Shown here: positions 1,888 through 57,065 of the stretch, piece by piece | Position numbering within the stretch: position 1 is the stretch's first letter | Layout of the letters: every line of letters starts with the position of its first letter | Origin: Isurus oxyrinchus | Taxonomy: Eukaryota | Assembly (NCBI GenBank): GCA_026770705.1 | Contig: JANJGN010000008.1 | Location: forward strand, 170,748,001 to 170,812,000 | Length of the DNA: 64,000 nucleotides | Direction: 5' to 3' | The notes under the pieces: generated by a model | Databases searched by the model: none | What the model was told of the DNA's origin: nothing | What the model saw: the letters and a program-made list of their open reading frames with translations, nothing else | Made by a program: the position numbers and the translations under genes

Positions 1888-2289
1888 CTACAAAATATTA
1901 GGAAGATAAATTTAAGTATAAGAAGAAATTTTGAATAAATGTGATTATTGTTTAAACATCTATTCCACTGCTATTTTAAGAAAAACTTCGATCTTTTCAT
2001 CATTGACTTGTTTATACTCCCACAATTTGCTTAAGAATTAATTCGGTTTGTGATTACTTTTGGCTCTGGATATTTGTGTGACTTATTAATCATTCCACAG
2101 AATGAAATTCAATTAACATGCTTCCGAAATGAAAAGAATGGGCTGGTTTAGATCTTGCAGCATGATAAATATTTGGTAATTGCATTAAATTAAAACCAAA
2201 TGATTATAAAAAAGGGTATCACAATGATTTTGTCCGTCAGGTTTTCCTTCCCTTCTCTCATGCCTGGGCACATTACCAAAAGCATTAGC

Positions 2290-3022: not shown

Positions 3023-3754
3023 TGGGTGTTAGGAGGAAACTCAACCTCAAGGAATGTAACTAGCCTTACCCATCATGCTGATATGCTAACACCATGCTTG
3101 CACAGTAAAGTTACAATATATCACACAAGTTGGTCTTTTCACTTCAAATGTGTTTTCTAATTATTGCACATATTTTGTTTCAATCTGCTGGATTTTGTAT
3201 TTTTAGCAAGTTAGAGCTTGGTTCAAATATTGTCCCATCAAACTACAGAAAAGAAGCTTTATTGCTTTTTGGTAGTCGTAGCATTACAATATAACTTTTT
3301 GTAATCTCCTCTGAAGATATAATGACAATTTGCCACTTCATATTACAAATAAAGTAGAGGTATCATTTATAAAATATTAAAAGAGCAAGAGCAGTGATTT
3401 TGATCTCTACATTTATCTTAAACCTTCTTCTGTGGAAACACAAAATCCATATTGCCATAAATAAAAGATATCCCAACCTGCTCCGTGCTCCCCACCCCCC
3501 CACCCAATCCCCACCAAAAAAACCCAGGGCCTTCTAATGCACATCTTATTGCAAGAAGCTGCTTATGAAAGCTCATGCGTCGATAAACACATAACTAGAG
3601 TTTTGTACCTACAGGAGCTCCACAATTGCACTTCTGTTGAATCAAATTTAAAAATATTAAAGAATGAAAGTATTTTATTTCATTTGGGCGATGCAGTTAA
3701 TGGTGGGATGGTGCACATTGTGTAATTAGCATTACCGCCTAAAGAATGACCGCA

Positions 3755-4200
3755 ATGAATGAAGGAAATACAGAGAGAAGATCCATCTAATGCATATGAT
3801 TGAATTTAGCTGAACTGGAGCCCTGACAATGGAAGCATCATATAAATACATAACAGTATTTAAGATTGCTAATAAATTGTAATAACATCAGCAACTCTTT
3901 TTAAACACAGAAGTCAACAATATTTTGCTGTAACTTGTCCTTCAGGCACATAAACTGGATGAAGAGGTAACGGTGACACCCGAGTGCAAATGAGAAACAT
4001 TTTTTTTTAAGATTCCCAACACCTTTGCTCATTGCTCCCCCGCTAACAGAGAAGGCAGAACACAACTTGCAAGATTTTGTCAATGTCACTCTGGTACAAG
4101 GAAGCACCCAACTATGGCTTGCAGTTCTGTTTTCCCTGCTCTTCCTCGCCTCTGGAATTAGTGTTTCAGTTCAATATCTCCTCCCAATATTCATCAGGGA
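3755..4200 (+). repeat. Copy 1 of a diverged ~450-bp direct repeat
   Basis: Collinear blocks shared with 5265-5725: aaggaaataca, attgaatttagctgaa, gaagcatcata, agaagtcaacaatatttt, ttttttttaagattcccaa, cagagaaggca, caagattttg, cagttcaatatctc. Confidence 0.85.
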
Positions 4201-4700: not shown

Positions 4701-5264
4701 CTCCTCATTGTATGGGTTGTGAGAACCCATAGAACTCTCCTTCTCACACAGGACTAACCACACTATTAATTGATATGTGATTACAGGCAAAAAAGAAGCA
4801 TTTATATCATGACCCGTCAGGCTGTTTATCAGCCTGCAAGTCTTTCCACTACTACATACGCTTCTGTAAAGAAGGAGTGTGAAGATATGAAAACAATAAA
4901 GCTTCCATTATTTGATAATATTTCCATCAATTTTGATTATTTCATGTTAAAGTGCTAACACTTTTTGCAGATTCCCTTTTTTTAAAAAAAAACAGTAGTT
5001 GATATTTTCACTTTGGAAATTTTCACCAAACTACAACTCGGGGCGTGAAGACTTTATTGGGTATACAAGAAGTCAAAACTTCGCTTCATTCTACTGCAAA
5101 TGGTGCAAATGTAAACAAATGAAATTACATAAATAAAAATTCAGAAGCTATAAGTCCAAATTTTCCTTTCAACTATAATACTGCAAAGACCATTTGTTAC
5201 TGTTTCCAGATATGAAAACTTAATCAGATAACAATGTTAATATTACTTTCTAAGGGATGCCTGA

Positions 5265-5725
5265 TATGAATTAAGGAAATACAAGAGAGAAAATCTATCT
5301 GATATCTGTAATTGAATTTAGCTGAAATGTAGACCCGCCAACTGAAGCATCATAGAAAGACATTAGGTTGTTAACAAAATGGAATAAAATAAGGAACATT
5401 TTTTTAAACAGAGAAGTCAACAATATTTTCCTGTAACCAGTTCTTCAGGAAAATAAACTGGTCATAAATGTCACAATGACATAATAGATATCAAAAGTGG
5501 TAATGAAAAGAACTAATCATAGATTGGTCTTTTTTTTTTAAGATTCCCAATACCATTGTCCACTCCTCCCCAGCCAGCAGAGAAGGCAAACTATCTATTT
5601 CCAAGATTTTGCCAACATCACTGTGGTACCAGGGAGCACCCAATAACGACTTGCTGTTCCATTTTCCCTGCTCATTTACACTCCAACCAGTTCAATATCT
5701 CTTCCGGATGTCATGCCTGAGAGTA
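5265..5725 (+). repeat. Copy 2 of the diverged ~450-bp direct repeat
   Basis: Same ordered blocks as 3755-4200. Confidence 0.85.
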
Positions 5726-12218: not shown

Positions 12219-13521
12219 GTATGTGTGGCCATGACTTGTAATATCTTCAACTCTGTACCTTCAAAGATGCTCTTTCTGAGACAATTGAGGATCCGAGAAT
12301 CAAATTTACATGGTTCTCGGGAGAGAGAGTGGGAGAGAGATGTCGAGGGATTTTGTACACGCAATATTGTCACAGGTTTCTGCCGTCAATCAGTGACGGG
12401 AGGGAAGGGGGGTGGGGGTTGGTTAGGAGGAAACCATTCCACACCTCCACAGAAATGTTTCTCAAACATCCCTTCTTGCCCTAAAACTTTACGCACACAC
12501 GGAATTAGGCCGCTTTTGCCTATTTGGAATATTTAAAAAAAATAACCCCACAAAGAAACCACTTCGCCTATTATTTAAATCGTGCGCGAAGCCCAATTAT
12601 TAAAATCAACTGATACTCATCCACCCTTTCTACTCCCCCCCACCCCCTCCCCTCCCCTCCCCCCTCCCCTCCCCAGCAGTTGCCGCTCAGCCTGAGAGGC
12701 TGAAGGGGACAGTAAGGTGGGGGGGTGGGGGAGGTATTTTAATCGCTTCACCATCATTCTTGCACAGCAATGCCTCCAAGTCAACGGCTTCCTTATTTTT
12801 GTAACAAATACGTTCGCCCCGTTTTGTTTTGGAAGCTGAGGTACTTGGCCCCCGTCACACAAACAAATTGCACTTCCCAAAGCTCTCTCTCCAGCAAGGC
12901 CTCTGCGGGCAGAACATTAGCATGTTTGGTTTAATGCAGAGTTCCCGCGCAAACTGGGAGCCCGTTTCTCTAAAGAATAATATCGCGTATACATGTCTCA
13001 GTGAAACAAGACATGCAAAGATGCTGTTGGAAGTCGGAGGATGGAAAACCCTAACCGTGAGTGGAGAAAACCCCCTAAGTGGGAGCTCTCTGTTCCAAAG
13101 CTCCATTGGGACCATTGCCAGCGGGTTCCACATGACAAAGAGACAGGGTGACCCTGTTGTTGGAGTAGGAACACTGGATGTTATAACGGCCAAAGACACC
13201 ATTCTCTGCTTACATCTGTCATTAATTCTAAGCCACGAACCGTAGGTTCGAACACAGGAGTTAGTGACCGCCAATGTTAGCGGAGACGGGACAATTACAA
13301 CAGCGTTGTTAGCGAATCAAAGCAACATTGTGCCCCAGCGAAAGTTGACGCTACTGTTCTATCTCCAGGGTGTTCTGCTTGGCGGCTGTCACACTGATGG
13401 CTTTGACCAAAAACTTGAGGCACTGCTTGAGACATTACAAGCAGCGACCAGTTCCACCATCGGGGATCCCACCATAACCAACTGTGTGAATTGTGTTTGG
13501 GGGAAGTTTAGCAAATCCTAC

Positions 13522-13880
13522 CTGCGTTGTAAGCTGTGAGGTCAGCCGCAGGTCCTGGGCTCTTTCTCTTGCGGGGCCGTCCTTTCTGTACCGTGCCCAT
13601 CCCGTTATAGAAGGGCAGCCCCAGGGTAGCGCCGCTCTTGGAGCCCACGTCCGTGTGGTTGAAGTGAGCCTGGAATTCTCCCTGAATCAGAGTCTCGAAG
13701 TGAATCCTGCAATACACCAGGCTGTCCTTCATGCCGAAGTGATCCCCGGTTGCCAGCATTTTGTTGCAGGTTGTGCATGTGAAACAGTTCAAGTGATAGA
13801 CCAAGTCTCTTGCTCTCATCACCATTTCTGATGCTGAGATCCCGAGATGACATCTGGCGCACCTCTGCACGGAGAATCTC
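13522..13880 (-). CDS. LHX2: LHX2 coding exon 3, LIM domain 2 and linker with basic NLS-like GRPRKRK
   Basis: RFSVQRCARCHLGISASEMVMRARDLVYHLNCFTCTTCNKML...KGRPRKRKSPGPAADLTAYNA. Acceptor CCCCACAG|G, donor G|GTAGGA, 359 bp. RDLVYHLNC, TTCNKML, AHFNH and GPxADLxAYNA are LHX2-type rather than LHX9-type. Confidence 0.97.
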
Positions 13881-16499
13881 CTGTGGGGTGGGGAGTGGAG
13901 GGGGTGGAGGGGGTGGGGGTGGGGGTGAGGAGGGGGGGGGGGAGTGGAAGGATAAATATTAAAACATTTTGGTACCTTTTGTCAAATCGGCTAACCCCTT
14001 ACATCTTTTTAGGGTGGCTACGAATGTTCTGTCGCCGCCTATAACTGTGTTTATAAACAGGTTCTTTTTGAATATCTTGAGGATGCCGCGTACACAACAA
14101 CCAAATCCAACCCAACAGCACCCTCCCCCATCGCCTTCACCTCAGGTTCCCCACCTTGCAAAACCCAACCGCTTTTCAGTCGCTAAAGACGTTAACCATT
14201 CGCTGTGGAGTTGGCCAGTCCTTATTTACCCTCGTGATAGTCAATTAACAGAACTAACTGTGGTCCTTTTGCTGCCGAACACATCCAGAATGCGTTTGCC
14301 TTTAATTGTCCGTCTGAAATGTAATTTTAAAAATCATCCACAGTCGTGGTTGGAGTGTGTAATTTCATCCTTATCTGATGAAGTCCTGACCACCCTTAAA
14401 CAGTCCAGTCACTGTCGGTGCTAAACCAGTTCCACCGTGACGCCCGAATTATAGGCATTTAGTATTTTTTAAAATCGTTATTATTGTAACGCAATTCCAT
14501 GCAGAAAGGCATTTAGTTCATTTTACAATCAGTCGTTATTTCGAATACGAGTTGCTCCTGTTTTTAAGAGTTCAAAGTTGAAGCAGTTGGTGGGGCCCAT
14601 TGGGAAAATATTTTTTCGTATAGAATCCGGATTATACCGCCTGAACCTTTTTAAGGTCCCACTTTCGTTAACTACTCCAAACACTAAAGAAGCAAATTAT
14701 TTCGTTTTTTCTCATCAAGGCAGTTAGAAATTTAAACTATAAAAATGTACCTATGGAAAACTCCGAGCTGTTCATAATCTCAAACTTTAACTTTTTCCCG
14801 CTAAAGGTTGTGATAATTTAATGGCATCGCTGTGATTAACTTTCATTTTAAGCTGGAGCATAAACATATCTAAGTGACTCCTTCCCATCTTCCACAAACG
14901 CTGCGCATTTATTCTGTTTCATGTAACATGTCAAATATATTTGGCTAATTCGGTGCCTGCTGGAAAAGGACATGCGTGTTCAAATAAACACCAGGGCTGA
15001 ATTTGGCGAGTTGCTTTAAATTACGTGGCGCGGTCCTCTCATTAGAAGATCATGCATAAAACATTACGCTCGGTGCAAAACCGCATCATTAAAAAAATTA
15101 ACTATTTAAATGAACTATGTAAATAAAAGAGTGTACTGCGGAATTGTCGCACGGGAATATCTGACGGTTACGTGTGAAACCCCGAGTAAATAGTCCTGAT
15201 TTTTAGATATGTTTATTACCAGCAGCATTTCACTTTAAGGGTTCACTTAATTGGCGCTGAGTGTAGATTTTGTCAATTAGACGATCATTTTTTCCCCCAT
15301 ATTCTCAACCACAGACTCACGTGTGCCCCAACTTTCGAAAGGTCCTGGTTTTCCAGTATTCGCATATTAATGCGGGGGCATCTAGTGTTTCATTGCGTTA
15401 CAATAAAAAAGGCGGAAACATGTTCTTTAATGCAGTAATGGGCAACAGCAAACTCGTGACCGATCTGCCATCAGTTCAGAAGGGTTTATTTTCTTTCATC
15501 GTCCCTACCCAATTTCGATAGCTGGAAAAAGCTACAGGGTGAACCTGTTCAGTCGAAACAAAACAGCGCGCATCGCTCTGCATTTCGCCGCAAGTTAAAT
15601 TCAGACAATAGTTAACTAATGTCTCATAGTCCATTTAACGTCACAAACAACCCCAGCACAATTAAACCAGATAACCGCAGGTTGGTGCCTGCTTTTCAGT
15701 TGCTAAAATAGCTACCCAATGAATTGAGAATGTTTTGTGTTCTGCCGTTTATTCTAATAGACTTTTCCCGCTGGATGATGTTCATTCGCTCATATTTAAC
15801 TGCACCGAATCATAGTCGCTGCCATTAAATTTTATCTAACGCAATTAGAACACAATTAAGCATAATTAGAATACTTAACAGAAGCCACATTTCGCTGTTT
15901 TTATTGTACTCTATTTTTGACGTGTTTAGTGCCAATATATTGTTTTTTTTAAAAGAAATGTGTATTAAGTGCCTCCAGTAGCTGGTTACAAGCGACTTCG
16001 GCCTTGCATAAATTTAATTGGGTGCTTGTATTAAGTATCCGGAGTCATCTCTATCGGAGATGGATAATCCTCTGGCTTTGCTATATTCCTCAGCATTGTA
16101 ACAGGACTCTGCAGTTAAATACATCTTAAACCTTGGTATCTCGTTGCATAAAACAATTAAAGAAAAGGCCCTACATAAATTATTCCGGCCCAGTTCGTCA
16201 CTTGAAAGAAATGCTCCCACTTTCCCTCGGCTTCAATAGGTAACAAATACGGTATTTGTTCTGAAGTACTTATTATTTAAAAAAAGTCTTTAGTTTACGC
16301 ACATGGGTTCAGATAAGGATGGCAGTAATGTTTAACGTTACCTAGGGAGGAGGAGGAGGAGGGGGGGAGGTATCAGTCCAAGTCCGACTATTCCACGTAA
16401 TTCTTGTAAAATTGTAATATTCTGCATGCAAAATATTGGGCCTCTGGTTCGCTCCAGGTTATAGCTGACATTGACTTTTTTTTTAACATGTCTAGGTAC

Positions 16500-16702
16500 C
16501 TGTAGTAATCCTCTTTGCAATAGATGCTGCCATCCTTAGCGAAGCAGGTCAGTTCGGATTCCAGGGCCAGTTTACATTCACAGCACTTGAGGCAGCGCAT
16601 GTGCCACTGTTTGTCCACAGCCAGCAGATAATAACGGTCTGAGATCTTCCCCCCACAGCCAGCACACACAGCCGGTCTCTCGCTACTAATGGACGGCATA
16701 GT
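16500..16702 (-). CDS. LHX2: LHX2 coding exon 2, LIM domain 1
   Basis: TMPSISSERPAVCAGCGGKISDRYYLLAVDKQWHMRCLKCCECKLALESELTCFAKDGSIYCKEDYYR. Acceptor TTTTTGCAG|ACT, donor AG|GTACCT, 203 bp, frame-consistent with neighbours. Confidence 0.97.
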
Positions 16703-18301
16703 CTGCAAAAACACCAGCGGGATATACCCCATCAGCACCCACTTGGCAACGCACCAGAGACAGGGTTACATCTTACCATCTGGGAAAAGAGCTAACACCA
16801 TCCATTAAATCAACCGTGTATCAGATCATTTTTCAAGTTTGGTGGACTGAATTCCACCGCAATGTTTTATTTTTTTCATTTTTTTTATTTTTGCAAATGA
16901 TATAATGGACACAGTCTAAAAAAAAAAGTTTTAGGATATGTTCTAACCGAAGCTGTGCTGTTTAGTAACAAGTTACTGATTAACCGAATGACGAATATCT
17001 ATGCAATTCATCAAAATTGCAAATACGCGTTTCATTCTCTCAATTCGTCGCGTTATAAATATCGCACATTTATTGCTTGTGCCGGTCCTTGAGATACCGA
17101 TACGTTCAAATTCTCACAGACATTCAAAAGGAACAACTACATAAGTAACCATGGTCTACCTGCTCCGCTATACACAAAGACCCTAGCTTACATCCATCAT
17201 TACAACCGCAGTTTAAGACATCTCACCAGTGTTGAAGTGCAGAATATGCCCGCCACCAATTCCACTTTATCGAATGTATTTTGCATATTATGGATCCCTA
17301 TTCCTTCCCCAAACTATTAATCACATTCTCTTGTAATAACTGTCACATTTGAAGTCGCGGTTTTATGACATGTGTTATTATTTATGATACAGGCCTTTCC
17401 TGAGCTGGGCTCATCCTGAAGTCTGAGTGACCTAGGGAAACAACCCATTACGGACAATTCTTTGCAAGCAGTGGTGTAAAATAGACGTCTCCGAATGAAC
17501 TCAAAGCGAGCTTGTGTGTTCCAACAAATCCCGGGCAAGGTTTTGAAGTGCATTCGATGGAGCTAGTTGCCAAATGTGTTATGTTATGTTCTTAGATTCA
17601 ATTGATATATTTTACGAAGTTAACCCACTTTTTGTTTCACCTTTTACCTCAAAAGCTTAATATTAAGCAATATGCATTCCGACAAAATATCTTCAGCGAC
17701 CGTGTTTTGATTTTTTTCTTCAGTTATTCCGCCTACATCCCCCCTCCCCATCGTCCTTGGTCTGAACATACCCACTAGCTGTAATCACCGTTTCAATTTG
17801 AAAAGAAAACTACATCGAATTCAAGGCAAACACCGAATACCTTTGAATTTTTATGACTTTTTTTTTAATAAAAAGTTGGATTACAATCCAAACTGGTCGG
17901 ATCTGGTCGTAGGTAGAGTTTTTAAAGACTGGTTAGAATTCTCTAAAGTTGCTGGGTCTTGCCCCCCCACCACCCTCCAAGTACATCTTCATTTAAATTG
18001 ATTAATTTTAATGCCTAATGAAATCGTACAAATCGGACAAGTACCCCAAATGATGTCGGTAAGACTCCAGACTGACTCCTGATGACTTAGCTTCAACATT
18101 TAAGACATTTTTTTTTTGGTATCTTTGCGGTTAATGTGCGCTCAATTATACGGACGCTGCACACAAAAATGAATAAAAATACAGAACTTCGTGAAGCGTA
18201 GGTGCATAAAATGATTTTTAAAATAACAACTGCCCAATCCCAGGGCAGTCCTCTATAGATTTGTATTATCATTATTATTGTATGAAGCTCTTGTTGCCTA
18301 C

Positions 18302-38500: not shown

Positions 38501-38951
38501 CTGTTAGACGGTTTTAATTCTTACAGTCCCTATAACATCCAACATCTGTATAACTCTTACCGCATGTCACTCTATTTCCCGATCCTCTTCTTCAACTCAT
38601 GACTTTATCCCAAAGTGATCCCACAGTTCGTGCCGTGTCTACAATACCTCATTTTGGGTCTTTTTTGGGGGAAGTGGTTCCCTAAGGTGGTGACTTGTAC
38701 TGAAGTATGGTTCCCACATACATTTCACCAAATGGTTAATCATAATATACCCCTGTATTGGTCTGGGAGGTCAGTAGGCTATTTGGTTGGACGTTGGAGG
38801 TGGTATCAGAGTCGAGCTCCGTCTGTACCTTCTACACCAAAAGCAGGAGCCCTGATTGATCTTCCCCTTCGCTTGCCAAGGAATGCAGAGGTTAGATGTT
38901 GTAACTGACAACAGGAATCATATCTGAACCTTTTTGGCTCCATGTCGCACA

Positions 38952-39479
38952 CCACTGTACAGAGCTAATCTTCCACTGTACAGAGCTAGCCTTCCACTGT
39001 ACAGAGCTAACCTTCCACTGTACAGAGCTAGCCTTCTACTGTACAGAGCTAACCTTCCACTGTACAGAGCTAGCCTTCCACTGTACAGAGCAAATCTTCC
39101 ACTGTACAGAGCTAACCTTCCACTGTACAGAGCTAGCCTTCCACTGTACAGAGCAAATCTTCCACTGTACAGAGCTAGCCTTCCACTGTACAGAGCTAAC
39201 CTTCCACTGTACAGAGCTAGCCTTCCACTGTACAGAGCTAACCTTCCACTGTACAGAGCTAACCTTCCACTGTACAGAGCTAGCCTTCCACTGTACAGAG
39301 CAAATCTTCCACTGTACAGAGCTAACCTTCCACTGTACAGAGCTAGCCTTCCACTGTACAGAGCTAACCTTCCACTGTACAGAGCTGGCCTTCCACTGTA
39401 CAGAGCAAATCTTCCACTGTACAGAGTTAGCCTTCCACTGTACAGAGCTAACCTTCCACTGTACAGAGCTAGCCTTCCA
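38952..39479. repeat. Minisatellite, 25 x 21 bp (CCACTGTACAGAGCTARCCTT)
   Basis: Head-to-tail units without spacers; variants gctaacctt, gctagcctt and gcaaatctt. Confidence 0.98.
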
Positions 39480-42400
39480 TTTCTATGCCCTTCCTTTGGA
39501 TTGTTGCCCATGGGCTAGCCCCATTTTCCCTTTATCTCTAAACTCACAGAATGTGAACATAGACCCATGTAGATAGATTTGAGAGTAGGGAGGAAGAACG
39601 GACACCAAAGATAATGGCAATATCAAGAAACGAACAACCAGACTCCACAATCAGCCCGTTTATATCAACGTGCCCTGTTCCTACAAGCTATTTGTCACCT
39701 TCTCCGCGATTATTTCTCCCGAGAAACTGACTAACACGAAGCCTTGCACACATCAGTGTTGTGTTGCAGAACAGCTGGAGTTCCCTCCGTTTTACTTTCG
39801 TAGGTTTAAACATCATTGGTTTTTAGCTGGGTGGGGTTTGCTGAAAAAAAGACCGGATTTAAAAAAAAGACATTTGTTGCAGTTAAAATCAGATAACGCT
39901 CATCAAGTCACCCCCGTCTATACAGGTCCAGCCACACAGACAGAAAGGCAAAAGTTAGTCACGAATTGTTTGGAGGATTCTTCGTGTGTGAATGCAGAAT
40001 GACGCAGTGGCTCCCCGCTTCAGGTCACGCTTAGAGGGTAAAGTTTACCCTCCGGCGTTACATGGAGGCTGAATGGGGACGAAATGAGGCCCTGAGGCCA
40101 GTTCACCGACCCGGCTCGTGGCCTGACTGAACTGTCCCTTTTGCCCCGGGCTCTGGCTGGGTCCTTCACTGGGCGCGTTCAGCACGCTGCCGCGGGACCT
40201 CGGTAAGACAAGAGCGGCTCAAGGCAATACCCCAGCCAACACCCCCCCACCCCCACCCCGGTTCAGGTTGGCTGTAGTCTGGAGGAACCGTCCAGCGCCT
40301 ACACTGTGTACATTGAAGAATAAAGCGAAATGTAAAGCCAGGAAGTTTCACCGCACCTGACAACTCCTGTTAACAGCTGGAGAAGTTTTAGTTCCGTTTC
40401 TTCGTATTGTCAATTGTTTTTACAGGATTGTTGGAATATTCATTTTAATTACTTTCCCCATTAGTTACACGGTAATTGGGGGGGGGGGAGGGGGGAGACT
40501 TTCACGTGAAAAGTTCTGGAAGAAGTTAGAAGGGGAGCCAGGTTTGAATGTGACAGGGGTGTTGGGGGGGTTGCCTCTTCACTCTGGAGTTAGCTGTACC
40601 CTGGAAGCTAGGTGGGGGAGGGGGGGGGGGGGGGGGGGTCGCTGCTTGGGTACTGAGGTAGAACCGAAGAAGATTCCTCTGTGTAAAACAGCCCGAGGGA
40701 CAACACGCCGGAAGGGTTCCGTGCGGTTTGGGAAGCGCTCGCAAAGAAGGTGGACAGACATTCGAGCTCTCTTCCTTCCTTTATACCGAGTCCCCAAACT
40801 ACAGGGGAAGTTATTAAAACGCGGACCAGGAAGTTTCATGTATAAATAGATGTTGTTTAACAATTAAATGAAACTGCCAGCGCGTAACATTCGGGTAGGG
40901 GGTGGGGGGGGGGGGGGGGGGGAGAGATATCCTAATGCGTGTGTGTGCGCGCTGACTAGAGTTATGTTGCTTTAAAGTGACCTCTTGGAAATAAATGGTA
41001 ATTTGGGGTTTGTTTGTGCTCATTGTGGATGTCCCTGCAGTTTTGTGCGGGGGTCGGGGAGGGGGGTGGGGGTGACTTGTAGCCCTGGGGAACACTGGCC
41101 TGAGGAGGCCCGGGCCTCATCTTACAAGAGAAGGTAAATCCCCGGAGAATTGACGGAATAGACAATGTAACAGCAGCAAAACCGGTGACTAATAGAACGC
41201 GCGGCGTTTACACAGTGAGTCAGAAGTTCCTTTCTTCGCTCCAGTTAGAACTCCGAAGGGGGCAGAAATCAGCAAACACTTCGGAAGTCTGTCCATCGCT
41301 GCGAACATCGTTGTTTGTAGTTGGCGCAAACCAAAAGAAATGAATACACTTTGGAGCCTGTGGTGTAATTATGTGTGAACCGGAATGACATTGACAACTA
41401 TTTCTGTCACCTGGCTTACTGACAGTGCACTGAACGGTGTGATATATGCTGAGGTACACAAAAGGGAAAAAAAAAACAATGTTTTGTGGAGCTGATGGCT
41501 GCAAGACCCGCCATGTTATGTGTACAGGGAAATCTCTCTCAGCAGCCTAACATTTAATACACAACACGTTGCAAGTGATAAGTCCGACTCCCGGCCGGCC
41601 ACACCATCACTTCACTGCAGCGTTTCGTTGAAGAAGATGAACCAGCCAATCCAGCTCAAAAAGTCACTTCCAGCATTTTTTTTTTTGTTTTTGCTTTTGT
41701 TTTTGTTTCAGATTTCCAGCATCCGCAGTATTTTGCCTTTATCAAAAAAAAAAGTAATTCATTGTGTGAAGTAGTTTGAGGCATTTAAGGCGCCATATAA
41801 ATGCAGATAGTTTTTTTTAAAAAAAAAACTTCACCTGTTGAGAAACAGAAGCCGCCATACAAAGCCATTTTAAAAAAAAAAAAATTCTTCAAACAAGGCC
41901 GTAACCGAAAGGGTGAATTGTGGAAGATGGTAAACACCAACCCGAATTGCACAGACCAGCAAACGGATTGAGGGATTCGGAATGAAGTCGTTTGATTTGA
42001 GTTAGGAAACGCATAGCGAATCAGACAGAATAATTTTTTAAAAAAATGTTTTCTTAGCCAACGTGACTACTTTTTAACGTGTTAATCGTCTATCTGCGCG
42101 TTTGATAAAAGGAAATTCTATTTGTAACTTGTAACGCGGTTTTGAAGCCAGTAGAATGGCGAAAAGCAAATCTGGTATTTGTAACACCTGAAAACCACTC
42201 AGTCCAGACTCACCTCTTTTAACACTTCATGTTGATCTAACTTTTCAGTTCATCGCTGGCAGTTTTCTTCAGCCACTATATGGTGGGATGGATTTATTTG
42301 TTTTATTTACGTGTGCTGCAGGATAGTCTGCTTCATATCTGGGTAACTCATCTCCGACCAGGTGAGTCTGGCTGTAAACAGCACCAATCTGTTAATAAGT

Positions 42401-48018: not shown

Positions 48019-48695
48019 TTTTAACTCCAATAATTATATATAAGGAAAGGATGAGTCTGAAGCTGGTCTTTTACCTCAAGCAGGTTTATCCTACAGCCAG
48101 CTCAACAGAGTGACAGACTCCCAGTTCCCTTCCCCACTGGAGTGTTTTTTTAATCTTTAGAATAGTCGACCTAAACAGAGTTGGTGTATTTTGTGACCGT
48201 TTTCGTGCCTTCAGAGACCGGCGTGTTTGGCCAGTGCTCCTGGCAGCAGGAGGCAGACAGCGCTCTGGATCTCCTTAGCCAAGACGATGTGACACTTGTT
48301 GTAGCAAATGAGGTCCGAGGCCTTGGAGGTGATGCGCTCAAAAATGTCGACAACAGAAGAGCTTATGACACTCACGGCCTTGGACTGGATCCTGGTGGAA
48401 GGGTGGACCTGGGTCAACACCCCGTACATGTAAATAGAATAGCTCTGCTTGCGAGATTTCCTCTACTTCCTGGGCGGCTTCCTGGTGACTTTAGTCAGCG
48501 ACTGTTTTGACGCCTTGTGGGATGGACCACCCTTAACCACAGCCGCCACCTCAGGCATTCCACTCGACTTGGACCAACTGGATGAGTCAATGCCCATCAC
48601 CTGTTTCAACAATACTATTGTCTTAACAATATAATTGCCAGTCAACGTGATGATTGTTACTGGACCTTGACAAAGACATTGCTGATACACTGACA
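48019..48695 (-). repeat. 3' LTR (U3 about 48580-48695; R/U5 about 48019-48148), split by the H2B copy
   Basis: 48019-48148 aligns to 56236-56364 with about 10 mismatches; 48580-48695 aligns to 56565-56696. Confidence 0.9.
48171..48558 (-). pseudogene. H2B: Histone H2B variant pseudogene, full length, intronless
   Basis: [127 protein letters not shown]. In-frame TAG at 48463-48465 and a +1 frameshift near 48220. Confidence 0.93.
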
Positions 48696-48889: not shown

Positions 48890-51800
48890 GGGCGGAATTT
48901 TCCGTGCCTGTTGGCTGCAGGATGATAGTTGGCGTGAGCGGACAATATGTTTCACAACAGTGGGAAGGCAGGTTGCGATTGTCCACTCAGCCTGCTGATG
49001 GCCATTGGCTGTCGGGAACCTCATTGTAATTCATCAGCACATCATTATTAGGCCATCCTGCCAAGGTCCTTGTACCCCCGCTGGATCGTCCGTCCACCTC
49101 AGCGGGAAAGCACGCTGACGTGTTTCACAAGAGTACAGAGGCAGCGTGCACTTTGGGTGGATCGGAGGTGAACGCACAGAACGTTCTGCAGAGCTCGCCG
49201 GGGTCACCTGCTGCTTTGCAGGCTTCAGGGGCACCGGAGGGTCAGGGTTAAGTGCCGCCCTGCCTGACTGGTGGTGGGGGGGAAAATCAGGGGCAAGTGC
49301 AGCCCTGCCTCTGAAGCATATTTTTGAGGGTGAGGGGGAAGGGTGGGGGGGGGTGAGGGGGGCAAGTGCAGCCTTGCCATCGAGATGATTGGTAGTGGGG
49401 GCGGGTGGTGGTAGTTAAGGGCAGCCCTGCCATTGAATATAGTGCACCAGCCTTTGGGGTTGGGGGGTGGGGGAGGGGGGCCGGGGGGTGGGGGGTAGTG
49501 GGGGTGGGTAGGGTGCACAAGGGAAGTAGCCATGCATTCGGGAAACCTGTACAAAGTGATCATTCCTCTGCAACTGAGACAGTTCGGGCGCAGCCACATT
49601 AAGATGATTAGGTTGGTCTCCTAGCTTGTCTGTCCACTCAAGCAACACAGAGGCATCAAAGTGCCATGAAGTTCTGCAGAGCTCCCTGTCCCTGGCACAG
49701 ACTGCAAATTCAAGAGCACTTTAGTAGGCTGCAGAGCAGTTGGACTGAACAGGTTGCACAAACTCCTTATTAAAGCTGACCTTGGAGCAGTCACTGCTGG
49801 AGGTGCTTACAGCCCCTTGCAATGTCAGTATCCTGGTTTGGGTCACTCTCCCCCCCCATGGTTCAAGCTAACAGCTCAGCCATGCAGCGCACTAACCTCT
49901 GGCCATCCAAGTGGTGGCCAGCACTCTCCGGGATGCAGTAATGGGCTGTCACACTTAACCAGGGCAGGTTCTTTGTGCACCCAAGGAGGAGTACATCAGG
50001 ATCATGGAGCCTGGTGAACTAGCTGTATGCCTGATGGCCTACAGAGTGTGAAGAAGAAGGCAGAGGAGAGAGTGACTGAGGCTCCTGGCTGCATAGAGGG
50101 AGGAACAGCAACCTCAGGAAGAAATGGTGGCTGGGTCTCCCTCACACACCGTCCAAGGGCCTCAGTGAGTCGTTGCTGGTCAGCGCCTAATGACACCCAG
50201 GGTCATTATACACCGCCTTTCATTCCTGCAGATGACCGAGAACTAGTGTCGCCGAAGACTGCATATATCTAGGGAACTGGTCGCTCACATCTGCCACTTA
50301 CTGCAGGATTTGGCACCATAGGGACATGGAGGGCATCCACTGCCAGAGGTTGTGAAAGTGACCACGGTGCTCGATTTCTATGCCAGTGGCTCCTTCCAGG
50401 GCTCCACAGGTGACCTCCATGGGATTTCTCAAGCCTCCACCCACAAATGTATCCATGAGGTCATGAATGCCATCTTCATGAAGGCACACAACTTTGTGCA
50501 TTTTGCCCGGTGCCAGGACAGCCATGATGCAAGAGCAATTGGATTCACCCAGATCTCGGGTTTCCCTCAGGTGTAGGGAGCGATTGACTGCGCTCATGTG
50601 GTGCTCAGATCTCTGACGCAACACGTGGTGAACTACATCAACTGCAAGGGCTTCCATTTGCTGAATGTGCAGCTGGTATGTGACCACCTGAAATGCATCC
50701 TGTAGGTGTGGACATGGTTTCCAGGGAGTGTGCATGATGCCTACATCCTCAGTCGGTCACAGATCCCTGGAGTCTTTCAGGGTCCACAGAGGCTGCAGGG
50801 ATGGCTCCTCGGGGACAAGGGCTACCTTTGGAGGCTGTGGTTGATGACACTCGTGCAGCGGCCTGAGACTGCAACAGAGCAAAGGTATAATGAGGCTCAT
50901 GCTGCAGCTCGCAACTTGGTGGAGCAGACCATAGGGTTGCTGAAGATGAGGTTCCGGTGCCTGCATTGGTCTGATGGTGCCCTGCAATACAGTCCACAGA
51001 GGGTGCCACGCATCATCATCGCCTGCTGTGCCCTTTACAACCTGGCATTCCAATGGGAAGAGGAGCTGCACGTCTCCTCCGGTGAGGAGGACACTGACAG
51101 GGATTAGACAGAGGAGGTCCTTGGAGGCGACGACGATGGGGATGAGGCCCTCGCGCTGGCTAGACAAGGCAGGCACACTTGGGAGGCCCTCATAGCTGCC
51201 AGATTTGTGAAGGATAATGACAACACGCAGTAAGGTGACTGCATAAATCCTCACGTCGCATTTGTGAATGTTTGACTCCAGCCTGGCTTATGGCAGCTCG
51301 AATACCCTCTGTGATAATCTCCCGTCATGGAGGCACGGTGGAGGCCCTAATAGTCGCTCAATTGCAGGAGGATGATGACAGCAAACAGTGAGGACACTCC
51401 ATAAATCTTCACACAGCCTTTGAGAATGTCTGACTCCTGTCCGGCCAAGGGCAGCTTGCCTGTGCTCCGTGATCAGGGTCATATCATAGAGATGCAGCCA
51501 TGAAACTTTAGAAACATCTGATGCTTTTGTCCACCTTCAGCACCTGAGCCCTTCAGGAGCACAGCATCAGTGGTCTCAGATGCTGAAGAGATGGGGGCCA
51601 GCCCCACCTTAAAAGTGCTGAGGGCACATCAGGAGAATGAGAGAACTCTGTGGTGCCTGCCTACTACATTCTGGTAGCATCGACAAGCGCTACCTAGGTG
51701 CAGCATTAGTAATGTCTCCGGGGAGTGTTAGGCTGGACCATCACTTTAGTCTGAAGGCTGCAGAGCACAGAGAAGAGGCCCTGGACTGAGACACCTACCT

Positions 51801-52175
51801 GTGTCTTTTGCAGAAAGGTTTCACATCTGAGTGACAAGAACATTGCTCATCAGCACATGGAGCCATAGGCAGGGAGACATTCTTGGGAGTTTATTGACAA
51901 TAATGAATAGTATGTACAAGTGATCAACACCCGTGGCCAGGCTGTGCAACTAACTCTCCTTAACTGTCCAATCCCTGCCACTACGTCTTGGTGCTCCATG
52001 GATATCCACAGTGGAGGTGGAGACATGCTGACTGCTATGCCCTGTCTGGTGGGCGTCCTCTGTGGGGCCGAGACTTGGAAGGTCCCGGCTGGATTTCAGG
52101 GTCCTGCTGTGTGGCAGTGGGACCCTCCGTGGCCTGTGGAGCTGGAGCTGCTGAGGTCACAGGAAGACTGTGAGA
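48890..52175 (+). mobile_element. PIF/Harbinger DNA transposon, right end deleted, inserted at the end of Copia pol
   Basis: Left TIR-like GGGCGGAATTTTCC preceded by TTA; contains a transposase; probable convergent second-ORF tail at 52035-52175 with a minus-strand AATAAA near 51890. Confidence 0.85.
50004..51233 (+). pseudogene. Harbinger (HARBI1-like) DDE transposase with several premature stops
   Basis: LDFYASGSFQ..GD..GISQ, GFPQV*GAIDCAHV, KGFHLLNVQLVCD, FPGSVHDAYIL, WLLGDKGY, YNEAHAAARNLVEQTIGLLKMRFRCL, IIIACCALYN, all in one frame. Confidence 0.92.
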
Positions 52176-52189
52176 GTTGAGTGATGAGA

Positions 52190-55100
52190 AGAGTGACTTA
52201 CCCTTACTTGCTCTCAGAACTTCCCCAACTGTAGCATGTTTCATCATAGTACTCAGCTCCAACAGGTCATAACTAGCGTCAAGTCTGTTCTGAGTGCATA
52301 GCCAATTAATCAGCCCAATCAAACTTCTCAATTGGTCTATTTCTTCCTTGGATACAGGATCCTCTTTTTATGAGGATCTGACCCAACTTATTGGAATAGG
52401 ATTGACATTATCGAAATAAGCTTGTTGATTCAATGTCACTCCTGGCTTGTTCTGCTTAATGTCTAAACCTATGCATTTAAATGCCCCTGAAGCCTAACAT
52501 TCAACCTTGAAATCCTTCATTATTTTCTCAATTACCCGTGGCTCAAATTCTACAGAGCTTCTCACAGTAAATCATCAATGTGCATGATAAAGATTCCTGC
52601 TAGTTTCTCCTTGTGATATCAATAGAGCATTATGAGGTCTGCCTTTAATTGAATTAAACCTGTTTTCAACAGGACAGAACTCACTGAAAAATACCATATT
52701 CTTGATGCTTCCTTCAACCCATAAACACACTTGTTCAATTTCCACAGCTTTCTGTCTATATCGCCAGCTCCTTTAGGTCATTTAAAAAAAAACCTCCCTT
52801 TGAAATTTCTCACCCTGCAAAAACGCAGTTTTTAATATCAATTGATTTGCATTCCCAGGAATTTGATAGCTAAAAAGATCTTCAATCTCACTTTCCTTGC
52901 AGTAGAGGAGTCCACCCTGAGATCTTGATCCCAAAGTCTTTCTTCAAAACCTCCGACTATTAATCTCATTTTAGTCTTGTACGTGTAGTCAGGAAATACC
53001 CTTTCTGTATGATCAGCCTGGCTGTCCCCTGTCAGGTACTTCAGTATATACCCCAAATTCTTTCCAACTCTTTGTTTGGCTTCCTTCATCAGCTTATTTT
53101 CCAAGTTATTAGCAGCTACTAAAGCCTCTCAGTCTGAAGGGCTTCTACTTCTATTGACATTCCTAGCTTGTTCTGTAGCCCTTGTTCTTGTCAAGCTACG
53201 ACCTCCACTCGCATTCCTCTCTCTTTCTGGACCACTGCTATATGATCCTTTCTGCACGCGAGCAGAATCCCGTTCGCAAGTCCGTGATCTTTTCCTGGGA
53301 TCACGACCACTTTCTGGTCCCACTGTCAGGACTCATACTGCGCTTTCTGGACTTCCACATCTTTACCACTGTTTGCCAATCCATGGATCTTATCTCCTGC
53401 CCTTTATCCTGTACATTTAGCCAATGTTTGAATTTACCAGTGGCCTTTCCTGCTCTCCCTATGATGGTGGCACCCCCCCCACACACTGCCCCCCTCTGGC
53501 ATGTATGTTACCTTTGTTCCTACTTTGGGTAGTTGACCTTTTGGATGAATGGCCTTATCCTGTACCTCAGTGTTTCTTCATTCATTGGCAGTTGACCCTC
53601 TATCTCCCATAGTCTGCTCCTCATAACTGCCCAATATATGTCAATGTGAAGTGTACGGTACCTCTTCACTTTCTATGTCCTGTTCAGAACCTGTGAAGTG
53701 CCAATTAACCTCGGAGAATGCACCCTAACAGTTTGATTCCCCCGTTGTATAATCACTACTTTTCCATCGCTCCCTGTCACTTTGCCAGGGTCTTTCCACC
53801 CTTTCTGCCCTTCCCTTTTGTAATATGCCACGTCTCCTTGTCGAAACTGTATTCCCGATGGTCTTATTCAGCGAGCCTTACGGCACCACATTTTCTATGA
53901 AACCTCAGCTTTAATGAAAGATTTTCTGCCTACATGCAAAGCGTTCAGATGAGGAGAAAAAGTGGAGCTAATGCCAGTCCCTTCTAAAGCAGGGGGAGCT
54001 TCTGATAGCACCGAAGGCTACTTTGGATTTCTTCCGTACACTAACAGGTACGGACTGTACCCCCCAACCATTTGCAAAGAGTTCTTTGCATGTACTGCCC
54101 ATGCCAGCGTTGTTTGCAATTTGCAACCTGGTGATCGGCCAATATTTTATGTAATGTCTTCTATCACTACATGGTTTCTCTTGCACAGACCATTACTGAC
54201 TGGGCTTTCAGTTGCAGTGTGGATAACTATGATGTTCAAATTCTCACACATCTCAAAATTCCTCATTCACAAACTCCCCACCATTATCTGTCAGGAATTT
54301 CGTTGGTGTTCATTATTCTGTTCCCACCCATTTCTCTATGGCCTAATCAACAATGGTCCTTTTGTCCTTACTATGTACCACAGTGGATAGGCTAAATCAG
54401 GTTGCCATATCTATAAAGTGTAGCAAAATAAAAGCCCCTATCCTTGTCCAATACTTTTAAGCCCATTGCCACTGCATCATTAAACTCCCTGGCTAGTGGC
54501 AAGCTCACAACAGGTCTTGCGATATTTAATACAAATTTCACACGGAGCAGTGATTAGCTCAATGAGGTCATCGCCTCCTTCATCAACCACTCCAGCATCT
54601 CGCAGTCGAGCTTTCAGTTTTTGTGGTGCTGGATGTGCAAACTGTCTATGCAATATGCAAATAATCTTTTTGTCCACCAAATTCTTATTCCCAAAAGTTA
54701 ACAAAATGTCATGTACTTTTTGATGAGAAATATTTGGCTTCCTCAGTGGCAGGCAGTAATGGCCAACCAAGTAAAATGTCAAAATGTAGGTCCACATTTT
54801 TCCCAAACACAACCACTCTGTCATTCTTCATGTCTAGCATCATCTGAGCCTTTTTCATCACAGATTGACTTAACAATAGAGGTATCTCACTAGAGACCAC
54901 ATCAGTACTGATGAACAGGCTGACCCCTGCTATCTTGCAAGGGAGGACTACCCTTCTGTAAGATGTTAGTGTGTTATCATCTCCAAACCTGAAGCAGGTA
55001 GAGCTTTCATACTCCTTAACCTTCTGCTGATCTGCCTCATTGAGAGACTCCAGGTAGCAGTTAAGCCAATCCATCCCACACACTGTGGAGGTGCGATCAC

Positions 55101-56120
55101 TAACCAGAACTGCATAGTTGAATGAACTGACCATCAAGATACTCTTCACTGGATTCAAACTCTCAGTGACCAAGACAATTGCATCATGCGAGTCCGCACC
55201 ATCATTTTCAGCCTCAGAAGAATTCCTCGTGTGGGCTACTTTGAAAACATGATTCTTTCACTGTGGGCAATTCATCGTGTAATGATACCGAGAATAACAC
55301 CGATCAACCTTTCCCCGTCCATTTTTCAGGTTCAAACTTCCACAGTCTCTGTCCCAGACCCGCTTTTTGTCTCGACTCTCAAATTGGCTAAAGTTACGAC
55401 CATTTTCAGACTGCCTGTAAGTAACGTCTTTGTACTGGAATCTATCTCGAATATTTGGTCGATTTCAAAATTTGGCCACCATTGAATCCCCCAGCCTTTG
55501 TTTCACAGCATAGTTGTTCATATTTGCTAAGAAAGTAGCTGGGAACAACTGTTTTCCCAGAATTTGTTTTTTTGTTTTTTTACAGCAGCAGCCATTTGGT
55601 CCAGGAGAGAGTCTTTCCCGCAGGATTGAACCCCTGTCAATGCTAAAAGTCTATCGACATGGGAGATGCTTGTACAATTGAGTAACTTAAATGCCAATAC
55701 AGACTCCGGGATTTCAAGTTCAAACTTCTTCAATCTCTTAGATCGTTTATCAAAGTCCATAATATATTCCTCCATGGACTGATCATCTGTTTTCTTAAAC
55801 CAATCAGAGGTCGACCATACTTCATATGCTTCCAATAACTCGTCCTTTTAGTAAAACTTATCCAAAAGCTGTTACAGAAGGTCCAGTCCCTCTTTGTGAT
55901 CCAAATCATCCACTTTCCACTCTGAAAATACTTTACTCCTAATCTTACGTTTTGCTGGGAATGACAAAGTCAAAGCCAAAGCCATACCTCGCTTCTTTCG
56001 GGGTAATGAAGTAATCCGGGTCCACATCTCAACTTCAGCTTTCCATTGCTGATACGGTTCTGTCTCCGAAAACATTGGTGGATAGTCGGAGCCCAAAGTT
56101 TTGCATCATCCTTCTGCCGT
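52190..56120 (-). pseudogene. Copia gag-pol remnant: gag (about 56120-55230), protease (about 55150-54790), integrase (about 54700-53700), RT (about 53100-52190); RNase H largely deleted
   Basis: YPPMFSETEPYQQWKAEVEMW (gag); AVLVSDRTSTVCG (protease site decayed) and FRFGD; LHRQFAHP...CEIC and FLTDNGGEF (integrase); RLIVGGFEE, DIKTAFLQG, WKLNKCVYGLKEASRIWY and IMHIDD (RT). Many stops and frameshifts. Confidence 0.9.
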
Positions 56121-56220
56121 TGTGTAACTTAAATTGTCAGCAGACAGATGCTTCTTTTTCCCCTCAGAGGATGAGACCAAAAAAATCTTTTACAGCAACC
56201 AATCACCAAAGCTTAATGTT

Positions 56221-56235
56221 CATCCTCTGTTACCA
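56221..56235 (-). other. Primer-binding site complementary to initiator tRNA-Met
   Basis: Plus-strand catcctctgttacca versus the tRNA-iMet 3' end CATCCTCTGCTACCA (14/15), adjacent to the LTR end. Confidence 0.88.
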
Positions 56236-56696
56236 TGTTAACGCCAATAATTGTGTATAAGGGAAGGATGAGTGTGAAGCTGGTCTTTTACCTCCAGCAG
56301 GTTTATTCTTCAGCCAGCTCAACAGAGTGACAGACTCCCAGTTCCTTTCCCCACTGGAGTGTTTCAGCTGCACCCATTTATGGTTTTATTTTCACCATTA
56401 CTGACACTAGCTATCGATTCCCGATTTTATTCATTGAATTTAAATTCCACCAGCTGCCGTGGTGGGATTTGAACCCGTGCTCCAAGAACGTTAGCATGGG
56501 CCTATTGGAGTGTTAGTTAAGTGATATTACCACTATGCCACTAACTGCACCTGTACCCATTTATGGTTGAGCCAAATGCTCAACACCTGTTTTCACAATG
56601 CAATTGTCTTAACAATGCGATTGTTATACAATGTAATTGTGAATCAACAAGATGATTGTTATTGGCCCTTAAAGTGTAATTGTTGATACACTGACA
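56236..56696 (-). repeat. 5' LTR, split by a SINE
   Basis: TG...CA termini; homologous to 48019-48695; followed by the PBS. Confidence 0.9.
56386..56554 (-). mobile_element. tRNA-derived SINE head inserted in the 5' LTR
   Basis: Minus-strand A box GTGGCATAGTGG and B box GGGTTCAAATCCC; flanked by the 14-bp direct repeat acccatttatggtt (56372-56385 and 56555-56568). Confidence 0.8.
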
Positions 56697-56769: not shown

Positions 56770-57065
56770 GTTGGAATAGAATCTTAGAAACAGAAACTTA
56801 CAGCACAGAAGGAGGCCATTTGGCCCATTGTAACTGTGCTGGCCTTTTGGAGGAGCAGTTGCATTTAGTCCTATAGCCCTTTTTTTGGTAACCCTGTAAG
56901 TTCCTCATCCTTAAGTAGCTGTCCAACTCTCTTTTAAAATTATTTATTGAATCAATTTCCATCATCAGTTTCATATCATCTGCAAACTTTATAATCCTGC
57001 TCCGTACACCAAGCCTAGGTTACTTAGAAACAACCATTGTGAATACCACTCCCAGTCTGTAAATC
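56770..57065 (-). mobile_element. CR1-type LINE fragments
   Basis: acagcacagaaggaggccatttggccc (CR1 3' UTR, reverse) and tcatctgcaaactt (KFADD, reverse). Confidence 0.7.

Follow-up and report, generated by a model that had tools for sequence, protein, structure and literature searches.

How did a copy of a histone H2B-variant mRNA come to lie inside the long terminal repeat (LTR) of a Copia retrotransposon? One locus in the window (the whole 64,000-nucleotide stretch of DNA that was analysed) raises this question, and an earlier note had answered it in terms of the LTR element, either as capture of the mRNA by the element's own reverse transcriptase (RT) or as a Copia subfamily carrying a histone cargo. 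The reading we favour, at a probability of roughly 0.75, is that the insert is a decayed full-length mRNA copy of a stem-loop H2B-variant gene, written into an already integrated 3' LTR by the endonuclease and RT of a non-LTR element (probably Tx1). The Copia element was likely a landing pad and not a carrier. The features of the locus, in the order in which the element is read, are:

56236-56696, minus strand: 5' LTR with a SINE insert, followed by the primer-site-like TGGTAACAGAGGATG at 56235-56221
56386-56550, minus strand: tRNA-like SINE inserted into the 5' LTR, at the TATA-like site that the H2B copy occupies in the 3' LTR; it repeats elsewhere in the genome
56365-56381, minus strand: the 17 LTR bases that, by comparison with this 5' LTR, are missing at the H2B site of the 3' LTR
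52200-56235, minus strand: decayed Copia internal region with gag-like, protease/integrase-like (by eye) and RVT_2 parts and many stops and frameshifts
49000-52200 (ends approximate), plus strand: Harbinger-like DNA transposon lying within the Copia element (DDE_Tnp_4, E 3e-23)
48580-48695, minus strand: 3' LTR, U3-side half, beginning TGTCAG with a purine tract in front
48145-48579, minus strand: H2B-variant retrocopy with a 21-nt leader, coding region, 19-nt trailer and A7
48171-48558, minus strand: disabled H2B coding region (388 nt; PF00125 match)
48019-48147, minus strand: 3' LTR, R/U5-side half, which matches the 5' LTR at 92% identity

Much of the structure first described for the insert holds. 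The H2B copy separates the two halves of the 3' LTR (48695-48580 and 48147-48019) and shares the minus strand with them, and its leader and trailer, first put at about 22 and 20 nt, measure 21 nt (48579-48559) and 19 nt on either side of a reading frame that runs from an ATG at 48558 to a stop at 48173-48171. The last three residues of the A7 are common to the LTR. The 17 nt of the 5' LTR reported as absent at the H2B site are indeed absent (ATAAATGGGTGCAGCTG, 56381-56365), and neither a target-site duplication (TSD) nor a histone stem-loop was found at the copy, as had been said. Alignment with the parent transcript (below) spans leader to A-run only, and insert and LTR overlap by 1 nt at the 5' junction and by 3-4 nt (AAAC) at the 3' one, lengths that template switching and TPRT priming would leave alike. 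Two other statements were not borne out. The copy had been described as running from ATG to stop, but the frame is broken by an in-frame TAG at 48465-48463 (codon 32) and by a 1-nt insertion near 48210-48219 that shifts it, and the window copy is therefore a pseudogene. The junction had also been presumed to lie at the U3/R boundary. A TATA box normally lies 25-31 nt from the start site, whereas the junction comes only 18 nt after the TATA-like hexamer, leaving that assignment unsupported. Between copy and parent we counted 63 differences, with 36 non-synonymous changes, 21 CpG transitions and a pN/pS of 0.42; they were considered as evidence of selection on the copy and set aside, pN/pS being confounded by the parent's own evolution.

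That the host is a Copia-type element was borne out by the LTR pair and by an RT segment (RVT_2, 52622-52777) scoring 32 bits against PF07727, for which the Pfam cut-off is 31.6; the gag match is weak and below cut-off (PF14223, E 0.004). An HHCC-like piece upstream of the RT was recognised by eye, the short fragments giving no Pfam match, and the primer-site-like TGGTAACAGAGGATG at 56235-56221 has a likeness to tRNA-iMet. No 5-bp outer TSD of the element was found (AACTT versus TGTAA), and its two LTRs have diverged at 30 of the 237 sites compared (20/106 plus 10/131), about as much as they have from other copies. For these two reasons they are not proven to be the pair of a single insertion. 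Both halves of the 3' LTR read, by eye, as one LTR subfamily (subfamily A).

The 5' LTR cannot serve as a clean empty site, as its TATA-like motif, the same one, holds the tRNA-like SINE with an 18-nt TSD (56568-56551 and 56385-56368, 17/18 identical, one mismatch). The SINE label was given by eye, Rfam returning no match at gathering score for this sequence. H2B is thus present in only one of the two window LTRs; the other lacks it and has the 17 nt plus the SINE. This matters for the proposal that the Copia RT left its own template for a co-packaged H2B mRNA and later returned to it, a proposal with which the sense orientation, the lack of a TSD, the small number of LTR bases replaced and the short overlaps (1 nt at the 5' end, 3-4 nt at the 3' end) are all in keeping. 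In the retroviral scheme of reverse transcription, both LTRs inherit any template switch made within U3/R. H2B would therefore be expected in the 5' LTR too, an expectation weakened only in that the pair is unproven.

Elsewhere in the window, a CR1/L2-like RT tail piece lies upstream of the 5' LTR (56801-57019, minus strand; by eye, no Pfam match), an array of a 21-nt unit at 38847-39602 yields a spurious repeated frame, and an old repeat occurs in two copies 1.5 kb apart and 71% alike (3731-4141 and 5242-5673). Minus-strand frames at 13508-13825 and 16388-16732 carry LIM-domain-like text and are, we presume, exons of an Lhx2/Lhx9-type gene.

Misassembly and DNA-level duplication of an H2B gene were both flagged as concerns in the earlier note, and it is true that the whole H2B stretch is spanned by no single contig. 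The 3' junction, however, is bridged by contigs in all four runs, one from organism A (possibly the assembly's own source sample) and three from a second organism, B (three studies), and contigs of all three B runs cross the 5' junction gap-free, reaching 29 letters into H2B where the threshold is 31. Organism B differs at 26 of the 692 letters in the junction contigs and lacks the frameshift base of the window copy. With junction-crossing contigs in two organisms, and with the parent's promoter and downstream flank unmatched in the copies, either explanation is hardly credible. As the insert is common to A and B, the insertion predates their split.

Where, then, did the H2B sequence come from? 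Only one locus in the genome has the H2B trailer followed by a stem-loop (G000:C21:115397245-115397706). It is intronless, with CCAAT boxes, a TATA box and an open frame of 128 amino acids, and its 39-nt 3' UTR closes with an A-run and AACAAC; the stem-loop follows, 39 nt past the stop. Genes for H3, H2A and H2B lie less than 20 kb away. By these features the parent would be a replication-dependent-type histone gene, and its mRNA, to judge from the stem-loop in the gene, the putative source RNA without poly(A); germ-line expression is likewise putative. The protein is 96-99% identical to lamniform shark entries and 86-94% to those of other sharks and a sawfish, as against about 71-74% to canonical H2B, and is an elasmobranch H2B variant. 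With a single trailer-plus-stem-loop locus, whose outer flanks were matched by none of 39 copies, the copies are RNA-derived. The suggestion that the window copy derives from a stem-loop histone mRNA thus stands, the copy starting in the leader and stopping in the A/C-rich run before the stem-loop. The A/C-rich resemblance reported at its 3' junction is also real, given the A-run and AACAAC at the end of the parent UTR. Because this UTR ends in an A-run, the short 'A tails' of the copies are largely UTR-templated.

The window copy is one of a dispersed family. At least 75 further H2B copies, all matching the mRNA of this one gene, were located with a 29-nt pattern over stop and trailer in which one mismatch was allowed (control 0); the window copy and the parent both fall outside this set. 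Sixty-five of the 75 start at or before the ATG, in the mRNA leader. A TSD was found in 25, compared with 3 of 1500 shuffled pairs, and by the rule applied the other 50 have none. The 3' ends fall in the trailer or A-run, both in this set and in an overlapping set of 39, and a stem-loop was seen in none of either (0/75, looked for within 60 nt, and 0/39). A genome DNA search, in which 40 of 1035 first-look candidates (not a copy number) were scored, showed that 37 of the 39 other scored places share both ends of the window insert. We conclude that the copies are of the 'tailless' type, their reverse transcription having been primed within the A-rich 3' UTR.

The family also has a history. Trees arrange the copies as a ladder, older types first and younger ones later, with the present parent at its end, and the A-run is reached by 36 of 41 younger copies but only 8 of 34 older ones; a second, older source is possible. 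A SINE would be driven by its own promoter and spread from master copies that do not depend on the source gene, and a ladder ending at the parent does not fit this. Many copies keep open frames. One (L026, G000:C20:28041307-28041739) has an open 128-aa frame and a TATA-containing TSD duplicated just upstream of its leader. By a lenient count, in which three of the six positives overlap the copy's own TAT, TATA motifs occur at 6 of 75 copies against 0 of 450. At another locus (L038, 2097-2198, minus strand) a U6 snRNA copy (101.8 bits) and further sequence lie inside the leader of an H2B copy that is itself in an LTR, making three nested layers.

What is special about the LTR as a target became apparent from 50 of its copies, 21 of the window subfamily and 29 of a sister subfamily (40 candidates scored per search, 30 loci taken per subfamily). 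Thirteen of 21 inserts of at least 30 nt resume the LTR within 8 nt, with a binomial value of 6e-11 against an even spread over 120 nt, where offsets were read by eye and the 8-nt window was picked after viewing the data. The tally leaves out indels shorter than 30 nt, LTRs cut at their left end and the H2B carriers that came from H2B-LTR junction searches. The inserts at or near the TATA-like motif include U4 snRNA (111 bits), tRNA, SINEs and Tx1 3' ends, together with what we take, by eye, to be histone H4 and ribosomal-protein copies. The TATA-like LTR site is a hot spot of a general kind, at which many different RNAs have landed.

Several individual loci deserve mention. At L048 (975-1496) an H4-like copy (by eye) with a 14-nt TSD lies in the same LTR 16 nt past the TATA-like motif, so that a second histone mRNA uses the LTR site. 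Four sister LTRs (L095, L108, L112 and L113) have an identical 11-nt insert at the hot spot that resembles the Tx1 3' end in L110 and L115; it is possibly a tiny LINE remnant propagated by the LTR element. In a third LTR family (L041, about 1920-2250, minus strand) a ribosomal-protein-like retrocopy, presumably of RPL36A, stands in tandem with H2B at the TATA, with the motif duplicated. Two younger H2B copies (L007/L058 and L045) occupy a second site in the hot-spot LTR, about 98 nt upstream of the first, and L058 and L045 are solo LTRs with perfect 5-bp outer TSDs.

With several H2B copies at one LTR site, the LTRs might belong to an H2B-carrying lineage amplified by Copia retrotransposition, the window 3' LTR being a descendant or a recombinant. 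The earlier note had looked to multiple loci with identical junctions as the sign of such a family, and at the 3' end this was found. In six loci besides the window the H2B trailer abuts the TATA-like motif; five are in sister LTRs and also share the older H2B type, and the sixth is in the third LTR, with copies of the motif on both sides of H2B. Their 5' junctions differ, those of the four sister-LTR copies in which they are kept and that of the window making five different ones. The window 3' joint lies 18 nt beyond that of the six and is unique in the genome as an exact pattern, which diverged copies would escape. A search for other A-tail lengths at the LTR site, allowing a gap of 0-20 nt, gave only the four known junctions of exact type. 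Furthermore, since the ATAAA of the UTR equals the ATAAA of the target, the same 3' joint is expected from independent priming.

The distribution of H2B among LTRs points the same way. H2B was found in none of the other 29 sister copies examined, and the window LTR, in both halves, belongs to subfamily A whereas the other carriers are sister LTRs. Among the carriers examined, none but that of the window has H2B in an element with two intact LTRs, so comparison of both LTRs is informative at the window only: about 19 kb upstream of the one further carrier that retains internal sequence (L040/L072) contain no 5' LTR, and the rest have neither a second LTR nor a Copia internal match in the 10-20 kb examined.

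Trees give a more mixed picture. H2B copies from the LTR site resemble one another more closely than older copies taken at random do (3 label changes versus 5.7 when shuffled, with 0 of 500 shuffles as low) and have an excess of shared changes (24 versus 14.3, p 0.024), and a single clade for the five sister-LTR copies is not rejected (AU p 0.31). The window copy falls in a supported group (96/85) with L002, L038 and L039, which would suit a common lineage, but the group also includes L005 and L195, outside these LTRs. The copies at the first site, window included, form one clade in 0 of 200 bootstrap trees, and the carrier LTRs show no excess of shared changes. In our reading, the clustering arose because H2B copies of one age class entered LTRs of matching age. 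With H2B in one of two window LTRs and in 0 of 29 sister LTRs, and with the window 3' junction occurring once, the proposed cargo subfamily is not upheld and an amplified lineage is highly improbable.

Capture by the element's own RT fares little better. LTR-mediated retroposition does exist in animals, where, in the part of the source available, retrocopies are partial, replace internal ORFs, lack LINE hallmarks and have a median microsimilarity of 6 nt at the switch points (PMC5131818). The window resembles these cases in that an mRNA copy is flanked by LTR-element sequence with short overlaps and no TSD at the locus; it is unlike them in that the copy is full-length and confined to a single LTR, the element being otherwise continuous, and in that its family has TSDs (PMC5131818, same portion). 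Rather than replaced ORFs we see 17 LTR nt lost and the internal region present, and rather than secondary copies of the same structure an exact 3' junction that occurs once. The same ends also recur in relatives outside LTRs that carry TSDs. H2B in a single LTR, a TSD-flanked SINE at the same site, the hot spot, the unique 3' junction and a family with non-LTR hallmarks together make a template switch by the Copia RT very unlikely.

The reading that we prefer, target-primed insertion by a non-LTR enzyme, would proceed as follows. The enzyme would nick the TATA-like stretch of the integrated 3' LTR, at positions deduced from the joints, and the freed T-rich end would pair with the A-rich run of the H2B 3' UTR before the stem-loop, as the AAAC overlap suggests. 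Synthesis of cDNA would then continue to the 5' leader and the second end would be joined 17 nt upstream, so that the target is deleted and not duplicated. As the window copy lacks a TSD, this mechanism is carried over to it from the family. The absent TSD, the loss of 17 nt and the short overlaps at both ends would equally suit a break in the LTR that was resected by 17 nt and patched with an H2B cDNA made by a LINE RT, with no endonuclease nick. Such a patch is unlikely, as it needs a chance break within a hot spot of TSD-flanked inserts, and Tx1-mobilised SINEs also show target truncation in the available part of the crocodilian study (PMC4494074).

Which non-LTR enzyme might be responsible? 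At the hot spot in L061 lies a LINE of a young family (4793 candidates) with endonuclease (APE), RT and zf-RVT domains (Pfam). Its best named relative is the Xenopus TX1 149 kDa protein (50% identity over 99% of the query, E 1e-99), which places the family, by sequence, apparently closest to the Tx1 clade; an Atlas look-up with a piece of the LINE found nothing beyond zf-RVT clusters, and recognition stayed below the Atlas bar. Six of the 75 H2B copies flank one position of a Harbinger-like family, and Tx1 or SINE ends abut the same site in L118, L141 and L146 (by eye); the equivalent site in the window, near 51945-51965, is empty. An H2B copy stands directly behind a Tx1/SINE end in L197 and L198, and directly before a Tx1 piece in L170 and L162. 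Young Tx1 copies themselves occur in tandem at about 7-kb spacing with a SINE-like piece between them (L142-L144 on C4, L139-L140 on C5).

The 3' ends offer a further clue. The Tx1 UTR ends AAAGATTAT in 26 of 30 loci, a count that is not independent, as 22 loci run on into the same SINE-like piece and only four have unrelated sequence behind. Where the Tx1 UTR ends, the H2B copies read (A/G)AAGATTAT and the present parent reads GAAGATCAT; such a word arises in 0.2-0.7% of parent-UTR shuffles, a post hoc figure. We regard mimicry of the Tx1 3' end by the H2B UTR as a lead. Given a non-LTR explanation, the shared target sites, the tandem placement and the common 3' end AAGATTAT make Tx1, the one LINE group surveyed as a driver, a rather probable enzyme behind the insertion. 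A bolder and doubtful idea is that the shark-specific H2B-variant mRNA rides Tx1 like a protein-coding SINE through a Tx1 3'-end motif, AAAGATTAT, in its 3' UTR. Full-length histone ORFs would be dropped at LTR TATA boxes, with the TATA sometimes duplicated before an open frame (as in L026), so that some copies might gain a promoter at birth.

Parts of this picture have precedents. Therian tailless retropseudogenes, in the portion of the paper available, are L1-driven, 5'-truncated copies of non-polyadenylated RNAs, histone mRNAs among them (51 cases in human), with an internal A-rich 3' end matching the target and TSDs (PMC5322556). The H2B family shares the non-poly(A) source, the internal A-rich 3' end matching the target and, in 25 of 75 copies but not in that of the window, a TSD. 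It differs from what is described there in its shark-type genome, in that a single variant gene gave rise to at least 75 further copies, of which 65 are full-length, and in its signs of Tx1 as driver (PMC5322556). Crocodilian Tx1 LINEs and SINEU, in the available text, insert into particular LTR retrotransposons and Harbinger transposons, the passengers sharing the target, with tandem inserts and with TSD, target truncation or blunt joins (PMC4494074). LTR-element and Harbinger targets, a passenger that shares the target and tandem inserts are found here as well. The crocodilian passengers, however, are snRNA-derived SINEs, whereas in the shark-type genome a histone mRNA that codes for protein is carried, and a TATA-like box serves as the LTR target. 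As fewer than 20% of the sampled H2B copies use any one target, the family stays below the bar for 'target specific' set in that part of the study (PMC4494074). The pile-up of retroposons at single positions of older repeats recalls nested-insertion hot spots in human transposable elements, with another host, other elements and another target, so far as the accessible text of PMC2836564 goes.

We found neither the H2B family nor the LTR site in the published literature, though Repbase/Dfam, subscription journals or supplements could hold them, and the available portions of 10.64898/2026.06.26.734816, 10.1101/2025.06.08.657570, 10.1101/443036 and PMC8857922 do not describe the family.

The window locus itself is ordinary and no case of LTR gene capture; the H2B family and the hot spot are an unusual variant of a known phenomenon. 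What stands out is the mass of full-length histone retrocopies made from one non-polyadenylated mRNA, apparently without poly(A) priming. Since the window copy is common to two organisms, H2B copies are usable as presence/absence markers. Among the matches listed, 45 of 120 homologues are annotated H2B-like genes of two lamniform sharks, and histone gene counts in those two genomes may be inflated by such copies. If Tx1 is the driver, the family would identify the LINE that makes shark retrocopies and would show how a cellular mRNA becomes its preferred passenger.
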